Of a DNA stretch of 64,000 nt, positions 4,604-63,344 are shown one piece after another (the stretch's first letter is position 1; each line of letters begins with the position of its first letter). The notes beneath the pieces were generated by a model. The model saw only the letters and a program-made list of their open reading frames with translations, did not search any database and was not told the DNA's origin. The stretch is from Escherichia phage D5505: sequence record MK327929.1; one strand, 5' to 3'. The position numbers were made by a program, and so were the translations under genes.

Positions 4604-4971
4604 TTAAATTTAATGGCTTGAAGAAGACTAATAATTCTCAAGCGACTTCCTTCATCTTTAACTGTAAAAGAAAGAGGGTCACCAGATTTCATAGTGATAG
4701 TGCATTCAAAAGCAAAACCTTCGGGAACTTCTTCGAAGAAGTCAAATTCTTCATCATAAATTAGAACATTACTCTGAAAACTGTGAAGAATTTTTCCGTC
4801 ATTTCCAGATGCTGTACTAATCATTGTAACATTATTACCTTTCATATCTTCAACGATAAATTCGCTTGTAGATATTACAGCATTAATAGAACCATTCCTA
4901 TAAATAGCAGAAAATAGATATTTCTTTTCTTCACCTTCGCGAATGCGATATTTCTTACCGATTTTAAACAT
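4600..4971 (-). CDS. hypothetical protein
   Basis: 123-aa ORF tiling the 39-goF interval; 4-nt overlap with downstream gene. Confidence 0.55.
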   Translation of the reverse strand: MFKIGKKYRIREGEEKKYLFSAIYRNGSINAVISTSEFIVEDMKGNNVTMISTASGNDGKILHSFQSNVLIYDEEFDFFEEVPEGFAFECTITMKSGDPLSFTVKDEGSRLRIISLLQAIKFK

Positions 4972-15426: not shown

Positions 15427-15627
15427 TCATTTTGAATGCTCTATAATTAATTTTAAGGCTTCTTTACTGACAAAAATTTCATCAAGACCTTCTTCTACAC
15501 CCCAATCAACTACACGAAGCTGATTAGATAAGAGCTCGTATGTGAGCTCCTTGTCATAATTTTTAAATAGCTGGTCAATACGTTTCTTGTGGGCTTTCTT
15601 AAGCTGGCGTTTATTTAAACGAGCCAT
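15427..15627 (-). CDS. hypothetical small protein
   Basis: 66-aa basic ORF between 56 and soc; this is where T4 carries segF. Confidence 0.45.
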   Translation of the reverse strand: MARLNKRQLKKAHKKRIDQLFKNYDKELTYELLSNQLRVVDWGVEEGLDEIFVSKEALKLIIEHSK

Positions 15628-16145
15628 TAATAACCTCGGTCTTGACGAGCGAAGTTTTCAGCATTTTTCAGATAATAAAGTTTAAAGATTTCTTCAGCCG
15701 TAAGACCGAGGCCTTGGAACATGTTCAGAACGAAATGAAGAATATCAATCATTTCGAATTTAATTTCCAACTGGTCTTGTGGAGACAAATCAGTAATCAG
15801 AGTTTCACGTCGTTCACCATGTTGAGCTTTCCAAGGCTTCCATACAGCAGATGCATCTTTTTCACCATTGCTCATACCACCAAGAGAAGTCAATAGTTCG
15901 CGGAATTCATCATCAATATAATCTTTCTGATTACGCAGCCAATCAACAACTTCACCCGCAGTAGCCAAATCATCAGGATGACGGTTATATTCAGGTTTAT
16001 CTTTAGCTAAACGAACCTGCAGAGATTTCTGCATATCAAGCATAACTTGCAACGGGTCTTTTTCATCACCGAGAATATCCCAGTATTCATTTTGAGCTTT
16101 ATCAGCGCCTTCAATCAGTTGTGAACATTCATTAAAGTATGCCAT
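15627..16145 (-). CDS. 56: dCTPase/dUTPase gp56 (start at internal ATG, 171 aa)
   Basis: sequence from MAYFNECSQLIEG recognisable as T4 gp56; ORF-track N-terminal extension rejected; AGGAAA SD before ATG 16143-16145. Confidence 0.85.
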   Translation of the reverse strand: MAYFNECSQLIEGADKAQNEYWDILGDEKDPLQVMLDMQKSLQVRLAKDKPEYNRHPDDLATAGEVVDWLRNQKDYIDDEFRELLTSLGGMSNGEKDASAVWKPWKAQHGERRETLITDLSPQDQLEIKFEMIDILHFVLNMFQGLGLTAEEIFKLYYLKNAENFARQDRGY

Positions 16146-16179
16146 TATTTTTCCTTTCAATTCATGGGTTAGTAGATTA

Positions 16180-16203
16180 ATTATACAATAAATATATAAA
16201 GCA
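16180..16203 (-). promoter_or_regulatory. candidate MotA-dependent middle promoter for gene 56
   Basis: minus strand reads ttaTTGCTTTA, 11 nt, TATAAT; about 35 nt upstream of the 56 ATG. Confidence 0.45.
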
Positions 16204-16216
16204 ATAAGGAGGACAT

Positions 16217-16417
16217 ATGGTACAAAAATTAATGGCACTTGTTAATGCCATCAAAGGTAATAAAAAGCGTATAGCTTTTACTATTTCTGCTATGGTAGGA
16301 ATTTTACTCTGGAACTTTATTTTATCACCTGTTGCAATTGCACATGGTATTAATATTCCAGTAGTTACTCTTGATACATTCGTAGATTTAGCATTCGCTT
16401 TAGTTGGGTTAATTTAA
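16217..16417 (+). CDS. candidate plus-strand small hydrophobic protein (66 aa, two predicted TM segments)
   Basis: ATG preceded by AAGGAGG; sits in the 61-56 intergenic region, not antisense to a CDS except its last codons. Confidence 0.4.
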   Translation: MVQKLMALVNAIKGNKKRIAFTISAMVGILLWNFILSPVAIAHGINIPVVTLDTFVDLAFALVGLI

Positions 16418-17442
16418 ATCTTAGCATATTTAGATAACCGCATTTTAGCCATCAACCCCTGAGCAATATTATTTTTCATATATTCCATAATTTGTTCAGT
16501 GGTTGCACCTTCCTTTCTAATCATATCATTAACATCTTTTGATTTCCAGGGAGATTTATCCCAAAACATAACCCTTTCTCCTGCATCAACTAATTTAGTC
16601 ATTCGCTTAATAGTGTCAGGATGACGAGGTTCATTATCTAAAACCCACACACGTCTATCTTTAAATGGAACAACTTCTAGGTCTAATTGACCACCTGTAA
16701 TAGCTATACCATTTTCAATAAAAAGCGAATCTATAGGTCCTTCTAGAACATATACATCACCATCTTTGACTCGTTCGACTCCATAGATTTTTGTTGCCTC
16801 AGGATAAGCTTTGATGGTGATATATTTTTGAGGAGCATCTTTCTTTAATGCACGTCCTTGAAAAGACTCAGCTTTTCCGTTAGCATTATAAATTGGAATA
16901 ACAAGACGAGGCTCAGGTGTTTCCTTTTTATATGTTCCTGGAGCTATACTATTAACTAATTTAGGCCATTCAGTTGTAAACCAAAGATATTTCCATTTAT
17001 CCTTTGGAATACAACGAGCTTTTACATATTTTATAATTGGATGGTCTTCCGCCAATTTATCTAATCTGATGCATGACGGAAGAGATTTAATTATTTTCTT
17101 CTCAGGTTGTTTAGGAAGTTCTTTAGGTTTTTCTACTGGACGACTTTTACCTTTTTCTTTTCTTATTTCAAAGATATACTCACGATATAAATCAGGTTCA
17201 AACTCCTTTAAATATATTCCGATTGGTGCATGATAGTTACAGTTATAACAATGAATATTTCCTTCATTATTATCACCATAATACCATCCACGGGCTTTAT
17301 TTTGATCGGTTTTTGAATCTCCACAAACGGGACATCTAAACCGTAATTTAAAAGTTGAACTATTATTTACTTGTGCGAATTTAGGTAAATGAGCCAATGC
17401 ACGGTATGCAAACTCATTATCAATCCAAGGTATTGATGACAT
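16414..17442 (-). CDS. 61: DNA primase gp61
   Basis: 342-aa ORF, same length as T4 gp61; N-terminal zinc ribbon CPVCGDS...CYNC. Confidence 0.9.
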   Translation of the reverse strand: MSSIPWIDNEFAYRALAHLPKFAQVNNSSTFKLRFRCPVCGDSKTDQNKARGWYYGDNNEGNIHCYNCNYHAPIGIYLKEFEPDLYREYIFEIRKEKGKSRPVEKPKELPKQPEKKIIKSLPSCIRLDKLAEDHPIIKYVKARCIPKDKWKYLWFTTEWPKLVNSIAPGTYKKETPEPRLVIPIYNANGKAESFQGRALKKDAPQKYITIKAYPEATKIYGVERVKDGDVYVLEGPIDSLFIENGIAITGGQLDLEVVPFKDRRVWVLDNEPRHPDTIKRMTKLVDAGERVMFWDKSPWKSKDVNDMIRKEGATTEQIMEYMKNNIAQGLMAKMRLSKYAKI

Positions 17443-17610: not shown

Positions 17611-18237
17611 TTAACCTCTATTCATAAAAGCATTAAAAATTTGGTCATCAATAGAAACATCTACTTTAGACTGTTTTTCTGATGGTAATTCATATCCACA
17701 TATTACAATTTTGTGATCAATATCAAAATACACAGAAGCAATATGATTAATGATGTTTTCAGTAAAGTCTAAATCAACATCAATATCTTTTTGACCACAG
17801 CCCAAAGGATAAATAATGCGAGTAATTCGATTATCTTTAACAAAGATTCCACCGACATACTCTGTGCTTCGTTTAAAGTCTACACGCCAACGAAATGAAA
17901 AATATTCAGGCTCTTTATGAGCTCTGCTCATAGGACACAACGAGTAACTAGAATAAGAGATGTCAAATCCTACGCCTTCAATATGAGCCAAAGTATCATG
18001 ATTAAACCAATTATAATCGTACGCCAAATCCATTAGATTATAATATGTAAAAGGCACCGGATTAACGTCATTAATCACAAGCATGTAATTAGCAACTGCT
18101 ATAATTTCATTGTTTTTAACGAATACAAACCGTGATTGATGCGAATGACCTGGACCCGCGTTTTCACGATTAATGATATAACACTGGGCACCTTTATATT
18201 TGTATGTATCTTTGCACTTGTGCATTTGATAGAGCAT
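17611..18237 (-). CDS. hypothetical protein at T4 61.2 position
   Basis: 208-aa ORF; syntenic with the 61.x block between 41 and 61. Confidence 0.55.
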   Translation of the reverse strand: MLYQMHKCKDTYKYKGAQCYIINRENAGPGHSHQSRFVFVKNNEIIAVANYMLVINDVNPVPFTYYNLMDLAYDYNWFNHDTLAHIEGVGFDISYSSYSLCPMSRAHKEPEYFSFRWRVDFKRSTEYVGGIFVKDNRITRIIYPLGCGQKDIDVDLDFTENIINHIASVYFDIDHKIVICGYELPSEKQSKVDVSIDDQIFNAFMNRG

Positions 18238-18530
18238 TATTCACCTACCACTTCAGCGATGATATTTTTATTATTAAAGTTTTTATCGCAATACAGAACA
18301 TAATTATACTGCATTACACCACCAGATTTAAGTTGTTTTTGCACTTCAGCTTTCATTTCAGGACGATCACGTTCAACGATATTCATAATATCCGCTTCAA
18401 TTTGAATTTCAACTTCAGTCTGATCTGCAGTCATAGACCATTCGCACAAATCTTTGTCATAACCCGCCATAGCAGGCTGAGCAGCGCAAGAAGATAAAGC
18501 AAAAATTGCAGCAAAGATAAATTTTTTCAT
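18237..18530 (-). CDS. sp: Spackle-like periplasmic superinfection-exclusion protein
   Basis: 97-aa ORF with signal peptide MKKFIFAAIFALSSCAAQPAMA; length and position match T4 sp (61.3). Confidence 0.65.
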   Translation of the reverse strand: MKKFIFAAIFALSSCAAQPAMAGYDKDLCEWSMTADQTEVEIQIEADIMNIVERDRPEMKAEVQKQLKSGGVMQYNYVLYCDKNFNNKNIIAEVVGE

Positions 18531-60502: not shown

Positions 60503-60864
60503 TACAAGCTCTCAGTAAAGGTACGAGCGATAACGTCGCGCTGCTGTTCCGGAGTCAGAGAGTTAAAGCGAACTGCATAACCGGATACACGGATGGTCAG
60601 CTGCGGATATTTTTCCGGATGCTTAACTGCATCTTCCAGAGTTTCACGACGCAGAACGTTAACGTTCAGGTGTTGACCACCTTCAATTTTAACTGTAGGC
60701 TGTGGTTCAATTTCAATTTCACGGGTGTGCAAACCGTAGAAAATTTCTGGGTCTACAAAAGAGTCCTCTTTAAAGGTTTTAGAAACAATAATTCGTGCTT
60801 GAATACCATCTTCAAAATAAATAGTACCTTTATGCGTGCCTTCAAGAATTTGATATGCTTTCAT
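60502..60864 (-). CDS. autonomous glycyl radical cofactor (GrcA/YfiD-like)
   Basis: 120-aa ORF; C-terminal about 60 residues (EGGQHLNVN...RVSGYAVRF...TESL) match E. coli GrcA as I recall it; visibly GC-richer DNA than surroundings. Confidence 0.8.
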
Positions 60865-62888: not shown

Positions 62889-63344
62889 TTAAAAGAGGCT
62901 GTTCATTATTCGGTAAAGTGAAGGACCCATCACATATTGCCACTGAGTACGAGGAATAAGAGCAAAAGCATCCATCTCTGGAATCATAACGCCATCTTTA
63001 TTTTCAAAATAAGACTCGCAATGGCAATTTCTAAACATCTCATGCTCTACTGGAATCGTATAATAAAATAACTGTAAGTCTTTATTACTAGAATATTTAA
63101 ATACACCTAAGTCTTCTAGAAGGTCTGGATTATAATCGATAAAACCAGTCTCTTCTGAGCATTCTCTTTTTGCAGCTTCCAGTGCATTCAAATCAGAACT
63201 TTCTACACGCCCCTTTGGAATATCCCAGCGATGTGCAATCATTCCAGGTTTACGAGAACCGGTAACTCGTCCCATAAATAAATCTTTATCTTCTGTCATA
63301 AAGATAATACCAGCTGATAATGTTTTCATTTTAATTTCCTGCAT
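62889..63344 (-). CDS. nudE: Nudix hydrolase NudE
   Basis: 151-aa ORF; Nudix box around GRVESSDLNALEAAKRECSEETG. Confidence 0.8.
   Translation of the reverse strand: MQEIKMKTLSAGIIFMTEDKDLFMGRVTGSRKPGMIAHRWDIPKGRVESSDLNALEAAKRECSEETGFIDYNPDLLEDLGVFKYSSNKDLQLFYYTIPVEHEMFRNCHCESYFENKDGVMIPEMDAFALIPRTQWQYVMGPSLYRIMNSLF

Follow-up and report, generated by a model that had tools for sequence, protein, structure and literature searches.

In phage T4, the holin T, the antiholin RI and the i-spanin PseT.3 have a membrane span close to the N-terminus and a C-terminus in the periplasm, and all three act at the end of infection. The T4 exclusion proteins Imm and Sp are small envelope proteins that are made early. 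A small gene can also carry late signals of its own among early and middle genes, as is the case for soc, which has its own late promoter and Shine-Dalgarno sequence and encodes a soluble capsid decoration protein. Finally, the type I toxins are short hydrophobic peptides that are encoded under an overlapping antisense transcript.

Here we compare with these systems a 66-codon ORF of Escherichia phage D5505 (MK327929.1), a Tequatrovirus (T4-like) genome of which we analyzed a 64 kb stretch, hereafter called the window. The overall best explanation, which we consider probable, is that the ORF is the T-even gene dam.1 and encodes a late inner-membrane protein. Like soc, dam.1 is a small gene with a late promoter motif and a Shine-Dalgarno sequence of its own among early and middle genes, but soc reads on the same strand as its neighbors whereas dam.1 is on the opposite strand, and the dam.1 product is a predicted membrane protein rather than a soluble one. 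With T, RI and PseT.3 the dam.1 product shares a predicted single span and a periplasmic C-terminus. Those three proteins have folded periplasmic domains while the predicted periplasmic part of the dam.1 product is only about 24 residues long, and no sequence or fold similarity to the T4 lysis-control proteins is detectable. Imm and Sp resemble it as small envelope proteins encoded in the same arm of the T-even genome (sp lies within the window), but dam.1 is preceded by a late motif and by no sigma-70-like promoter, and there is no sequence similarity to either protein. The resemblance to type I toxins is likewise limited, as the antisense RNA over dam.1 is the gene 61 3' UTR, the putative promoter is a phage late promoter and dam.1 is a single-copy syntenic gene of lytic phages.

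The gene itself is already known, as dam.1 is catalogued in databases and annotated in hundreds of records. It appears as T4Tp032 (ADJ39749.1, 17724-17924) in T4T, as Sf21_gp31 in Shigella phage Sf21 ('predicted membrane protein'), as RB32ORF030w in RB51 and as gp16.1 in S16; PHROG 2024 gives the family as 'unknown function' and UniRef as 'Uncharacterized protein dam.1'. The T4T gene has the same strand, length and position between dam/56 and 61 as the window gene and is the same gene, and the T4 protein is one residue apart from the window protein (I45V). The match of the window protein to the PHROG 2024 profile has E=1.4e-31, with residues 2-66 aligned to profile positions 1-65 of 65, and the 801 bp around the ORF are 100 % identical in Sf21 and several further phages. 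In the reference T4 records AF158101.6 and NC_000866.4, however, the 309-bp gap between dam and 61 (17626-17934; our loci L003 and L028) is unannotated, and our literature searches on dam.1 and related T4 topics found no paper about dam.1. A sequence-only reading of the locus that preceded our analysis overlooked the existing annotation, as well as the conserved late-promoter motif and the single conserved span described below. Automated naming has given a number of family members implausible labels ('DNA packaging ATPase', 'thymidylate synthase', 'Holin'); the oddly named members are those of UPEC01 (L008:1701-1901), SAKp28, MY02, phage 04086 and OE5505.

Re-reading the sequence returned exactly the 66-codon ORF and translation of the earlier reading, and the AAGGAGG that it had placed 4-5 nt ahead of the ATG is present with a spacer of 4 nt (Table 1). 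Scanning both strands of the window for AAGGAGG-N3-8-ATG gave dam.1 as the sole instance, and a GGAG-type Shine-Dalgarno sequence at unchanged spacing is also found in the dam.1 orthologs. On its plus strand the window has 30 ORFs that start with ATG and reach 60 aa or more, among which only the dam.1 ORF has a Shine-Dalgarno sequence; the other 29 are all antisense to real genes. The length of the ORF was rejected as significant by itself in view of this number. The statement that all other genes lie on the minus strand agrees with the annotation of Sf21, where the counterpart of dam.1 is the sole plus-strand CDS among the first 90 CDS (about 50 kb). The description of the ORF as intergenic is correct in that it lies between genes 56 and 61, but its stop codon overlaps that of gene 61, the two sharing a TTAA, and the 3' UTR of gene 61 covers most of the ORF in antisense, because the gene 61 terminator sits inside the early codons of the ORF. 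Comparison with the Sf21 annotation places the true start of gene 56 at the ATG at 16145, which is preceded by GAAAGGAAA. A mechanical ORF list runs gene 56 on the minus strand from 15627 to 16238, up to a GTG at 16238, and thus over the spacer and into dam.1.

Table 1. Coordinates of dam.1, its neighbors and the regulatory signals discussed in the text (positions in the window)
Feature	Position	Strand	Remarks
dam.1 CDS	16217..16417	+	66 codons + TAA; ATG at 16217, stop at 16415-16417; ORF and translation, PHROG 2024 match, comparative data
Shine-Dalgarno AAGGAGG	16206..16212	+	4-nt spacer (ACAT) to dam.1 ATG
T4 late-promoter-like motif AATAAATA	16187..16194	+	22 nt ahead of dam.1 ATG; putative activity
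Predicted transmembrane helix	16271..16342	+	codons 19-42, contains W32, N33, P38; hydropathy, AlphaFold2
Gene 61 (DNA primase)	16414..17442	-	convergent with dam.1
TTAA shared by stop codons of dam.1 and gene 61	16414-16417
Gene 56 (dCTPase)	15627..16145	-	divergent neighbor of dam.1
Middle-promoter-like site of gene 56	16180..16206	-	MotA box TATTGCTTTA 16206-16197, 11-nt spacer, TATAAT 16185-16180
Intrinsic terminator of gene 61 transcripts	16222..16254	-	stem 16254-16229, 11-bp, then TTTTTGT
sp	18237-18530
Tandem TATAAATA	62885, 62872	-	26 and 13 nt ahead of lysozyme e ATG 62852
AATAAATA variant	42903	-	ahead of gene 49
TATAAATA late promoter	15255	-	ahead of soc, ATG 15217
Single late motif		-	ahead of 70-codon ORF starting 56474
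Plus-strand late-like motif, perfect TATAAATA	4899-4906	+	inside a minus-strand gene
Plus-strand late-like motif GATAAATA	17808-17815	+	inside a minus-strand gene
Plus-strand late-like motif AATAAATA	60816-60823	+	inside a minus-strand gene
Plus-strand late-like motif CATAAATA	63273-63280	+	inside a minus-strand gene

Conservation of the frame in relatives had been set beforehand as a test. A translated search found the ORF in 692 phage records, full length in all but six (686/692), and its position and orientation, convergent with the primase gene 61, are the same in at least nine genera of the Tevenvirinae (Tequatro-, Mosig-, Gapriver-, Dhaka-, Marfa-, Kanagawa-, Mosuguk-, Moon- and Gelderlandvirus). 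The neighbors on the far side of dam.1 differ by genus and include 56, dam, homing endonucleases and small ORFs. The Ka/Ks comparison that had also been proposed gives its lowest value in the dam.1 frame: across eight Tequatrovirus sequences dN/dS is 0.20 with zero stops, whereas the five remaining frames range over 0.33-1.18 and contain 0.4-8.4 stops per sequence. Between copy B of UPEC01 and the gene of Klebsiella phage Potts1, the protein is 89 % identical while the DNA is 71 % identical, with 59 % of third positions mismatched. As judged from these alignments, dam.1 is almost certainly a genuine protein-coding gene under purifying selection in its own frame only.

To place dam.1 in the infection cycle we looked at the signals upstream of the ORF. 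The window motif AATAAATA departs from the T4 late consensus TATAAATA at position 1. All first-copy orthologs checked have NATAAATA at 13-22 nt ahead of their ATG, bar those of Moon and S16, which have TATTAAATA. The form of the motif varies among phages, with AATAAATA in the window phage, Mosigvirus and JS98, GATAAATA in T4 and PM2, CATAAATA in Gaprivervirus and PEi26 and a perfect TATAAATA in Potts1, Q7622 and Kosakonia phage 305; the ortholog spacers around it are otherwise unalignable. ATAAATA is about 5-fold under-represented in the window (5 per strand compared to 23-29 expected from base composition), and each of the five minus-strand copies lies 13-31 nt upstream of the ATG of an ORF. 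A consensus scan of the plus strand just upstream of dam.1 found no sigma-70-like promoter. Because the late motif is present and no sigma-70-like promoter accompanies it, we infer that dam.1 is probably a late gene read by the gp55-containing RNA polymerase. The four other plus-strand late-like motifs of the window (Table 1) are antisense to the genes in which they lie, and neither a Shine-Dalgarno sequence nor a sizeable ORF was found behind them. Since the motif is rare, these four positions might start late antisense RNAs.

Two further signals on the minus strand overlap or abut the ORF. The divergent middle promoter of gene 56 that the sequence-only reading had pointed out can be read in the sequence as a candidate site with a MotA box and a TATAAT, using the middle-promoter consensus that we take to be established T4 knowledge, and it is also annotated as predicted at the same place in phage fPS-90. 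The dam.1 late motif falls within the spacer of this middle-promoter-like site, on the opposite strand. The intrinsic terminator of gene 61 transcripts is embedded in about codons 2-13 of dam.1, with its stem within codons 5-13; it is annotated in fPS-90 and found in Tequatrovirus only. No plus-strand terminator was found after dam.1 in the window.

The product is most likely a small inner-membrane protein, as had been suggested, and the predictions from hydropathy, charge distribution and the AlphaFold2 model agree on this point. A single clear membrane span, at about residues 19-42, stands out in the hydropathy profile. The 18 residues of the N-terminus carry a charge of +5 and the C-terminal tail a charge of -2, which by the positive-inside rule would put the N-terminus in the cytoplasm and the C-terminus in the periplasm. 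The AlphaFold2 model, built from 36 family sequences, has a mean pLDDT of 79 (84-87 in the transmembrane block) and consists of three helices (2-12, 16-42 and 52-63), the last two joined by a loop at 43-51. Resting on the positive-inside rule and a monomer model, a single-pass topology with the N-terminus inside is, we think, reasonably likely. The earlier reading had counted two hydrophobic segments. Both are present in the window protein, but only the one at about 19-42 is a convincing and conserved span. The second segment, at residues 49-66, contains two Asp and is modeled as a 12-residue helix, too short in the model to cross the membrane, and it is hydrophobic in one branch of the family alone (branch A, below); we therefore rejected it as a conserved second span.

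Across the 36 family sequences W32, N33, P38, G44 and P48 are invariant, and the family motif W-N-x4-P-x5-G-x3-P with an acidic residue after it is present in the window protein. Together with the acidic residue at 52/53, these invariant positions are confined to the helix's outer half and the loop that follows. A polar Asn within a membrane helix commonly mediates helix-helix association. The clustering of the invariant residues and the Asn inside the predicted membrane helix suggest that the protein works by self-association or by binding a partner membrane protein at this face.

The family has two branches. Branch A comprises the window phage, T4, Mosigvirus and the first copy of Gaprivervirus (..AIKGNKKR..LLWNF..P.A.AHG...P.V.LD..VD..), and branch B the Dhaka-, Marfa-, Kanagawa- and Mosugukviruses and the second tandem copy of Gaprivervirus (MGTLFYQIWKL..FLWNLLVVPIAATQGV.LPQVTMEH..). 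The Gapriverviruses thus have a branch A copy followed by a branch B copy in tandem (L008:1495-1901, L013:2495-2901, L006:1690-1875, L016:2690-2899). In some of them the B copy has decayed: in DK-13 and one IMG/VR contig it is truncated or has a stop at codon 2, the latter being the case in DK-13. That the B copy is knocked out in some Gapriverviruses suggests functional redundancy between the two branches. The dam.1 pair of DK-13 is separated from gene 61 by a homing endonuclease gene. The window has no paralog of dam.1, as determined by a profile search of all its six-frame ORFs.

To look for remote relatives, we searched 1.84 billion representative proteins exhaustively with a HMMER profile; only 18 small clusters came back, all of 33-70 residues and none with a known function. 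The protein motif persists at 20-57 % identity, and both tandem paralogs and remote relatives with other gene contexts retain it. Some remote members with the motif sit directly 3' of an endonuclease VII (gene 49-like) gene with a 4-base overlap. In T4-related metagenomic contigs, the small membrane protein comes last in a co-oriented trio (L032:3260-4210, L033:3263-4153, L034:2486-3376, L037:3272-4159), of which the first gene encodes a protein of 94 residues that has a coiled coil and an N-terminal membrane span, and the second encodes endonuclease VII. These metagenomic contigs also have the T4-type genes Cef, T4-type lysozyme and SegE-type endonuclease, and in L032 a perfect TATAAATA is found 21 nt ahead of the first gene of the trio.

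Searches for function led to nothing beyond the family itself. Neither Pfam nor NCBIfam gave a match to the dam.1 product at E up to 10, and a sequence-profile search of the PDB gave noise alone (best E 0.45). Foldseek comparison of the AlphaFold2 model found nothing in the PDB and only the dam.1 family itself among viral predicted structures.

We considered whether the locus could be explained without a functional peptide. The sequence-only reading had allowed for a chance ORF, and the comparative data refute this: in at least nine genera the frame is conserved in syntenic position, and purifying selection acts on it. A variant of this idea is that the ORF arose by chance in a spacer that is itself conserved for regulatory signals, such as the gene 61 terminator or the promoter of gene 56 or dam. 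Plus-strand ORFs of this size do arise by chance in the window (30 of at least 60 aa), and two minus-strand signals, a terminator and the divergent middle promoter, reach into the ORF or border on it. Conservation merely for the embedded terminator was rejected, because the terminator is limited to Tequatrovirus while the ORF is found in nine genera. Substitutions are moreover concentrated at third positions, dN/dS is lowest in the dam.1 frame, and the protein motif persists at low identity, in tandem paralogs and in relatives located elsewhere, making this variant extremely improbable. Another explanation is that the locus acts through its RNA: late antisense transcription through gene 61 would shut primase down late in infection, with the peptide being secondary. 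The overlapping stop codons of dam.1 and gene 61, the lack of a plus-strand terminator after the ORF in the window and the convergence with gene 61 that is conserved across genera are all consistent with such a role. The strong purifying selection is on the protein sequence, however, DK-13 keeps the ORF even though the homing endonuclease gene parts it from gene 61, and the remote relatives adjoin endonuclease VII and not primase. We consider a primarily RNA-level role very unlikely, while an antisense effect on gene 61 could occur as a by-product.

Granting that the peptide matters, it could be a holin or another direct lysis protein that accumulates late in the inner membrane and forms holes or times their formation. 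The dam.1 product is predicted to be a small, late, single-pass membrane protein, which broadly puts it in one class with T, RI and the i-spanin of T4, it has the one membrane span by hydropathy and AlphaFold2 that is the least expected of a holin, and the conserved Asn in the span could drive oligomerization. One member of the family, from phage OE5505, is even named 'Holin' in UniRef; we rejected this name as evidence, as it is a lone automated label among several that are plainly wrong. Against a holin, no holin family of Pfam or NCBIfam matches at E up to 10, and the protein is without a charged cytoplasmic C-terminal tail: its hydrophobic last 18 residues include two Asp but no basic residue, and the charge is at the N-terminus. 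There is also no endolysin neighbor, lysozyme e being about 46 kb off, and T-even phages already possess a complete and genetically defined lysis set. This explanation is in our view unlikely. We find it similarly improbable that dam.1 encodes a toxin-like or exclusion peptide, active on membranes, that damages the host, or else blocks its defenses or other phages. A small hydrophobic peptide with a cis-antisense RNA would fit, and the tandem paralogs of Gaprivervirus, one of which is decaying in some strains, are reminiscent of fast-evolving host-interaction genes. Yet no dedicated antisense RNA promoter was found, and the only antisense RNA evident over dam.1 comes from the 3' UTR of gene 61, as far as the terminator and in Tequatrovirus only. 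The late motif without a sigma-70-like promoter differs from the early expression of Imm and Sp, and toxin-antitoxin addiction logic is without obvious use in the strictly lytic phages in which dam.1 is conserved.

Returning to dam.1 as the gene of a late inner-membrane protein, we propose the following scheme. The gene would be silent early in infection. Late in infection, RNA polymerase with the gp55 late sigma factor would start near position 16200, leaving a leader of about 17 nt, and the dam.1 mRNA would continue antisense into gene 61 because no plus-strand terminator follows. The 66-residue product would insert into the inner membrane with its basic N-terminus (+5) in the cytoplasm, one transmembrane helix at about 19-42 and a 24-residue acidic tail, containing the helix at 52-63, at the periplasmic face. 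There it may tune a late envelope event, for example lysis timing, membrane integrity or the exclusion of superinfecting phage. We offer such an envelope or lysis-related role tentatively, as a possibility that falls well short of probable. To our knowledge, no locus between dam and 61 came out of the classical hunts for rapid-lysis (r) mutants of T4, which argues against a strong lysis-inhibition phenotype.

It is conceivable, though we hold this as a speculative and still more doubtful extension, that dam.1 is an overlooked late inner-membrane effector, for instance one more regulator of lysis or of its inhibition, or a factor in late exclusion or anti-defense, which would act through the W-N...P...G...P face. 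Such an effector would have been kept from T4 to distant T4-related phages, where it would be translationally coupled to endonuclease VII. It would have escaped study because the reference T4 annotation omits dam.1.

Few viruses have been studied as thoroughly as T4, but dam.1 is missing from its reference records AF158101 and NC_000866. Transcriptomic, proteomic, knock-down and deletion studies based on these records will miss the gene and, given the annotation gap and the empty literature searches, we expect that most such studies have missed it. To what the databases already hold, our analysis adds the evidence for a late gene and for a putative late promoter nested in a divergent middle promoter, the extent of the family and its two-branch structure, the predicted single-span topology with a conserved candidate interaction face, and the absence of dam.1 from the reference T4 annotation. 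The practical value lies in a corrected annotation; the gene is ordinary in kind and does not constitute a new kind of system. As a small late membrane protein, its product could nevertheless bear on the timing of lysis or on the guarding of the infected cell.
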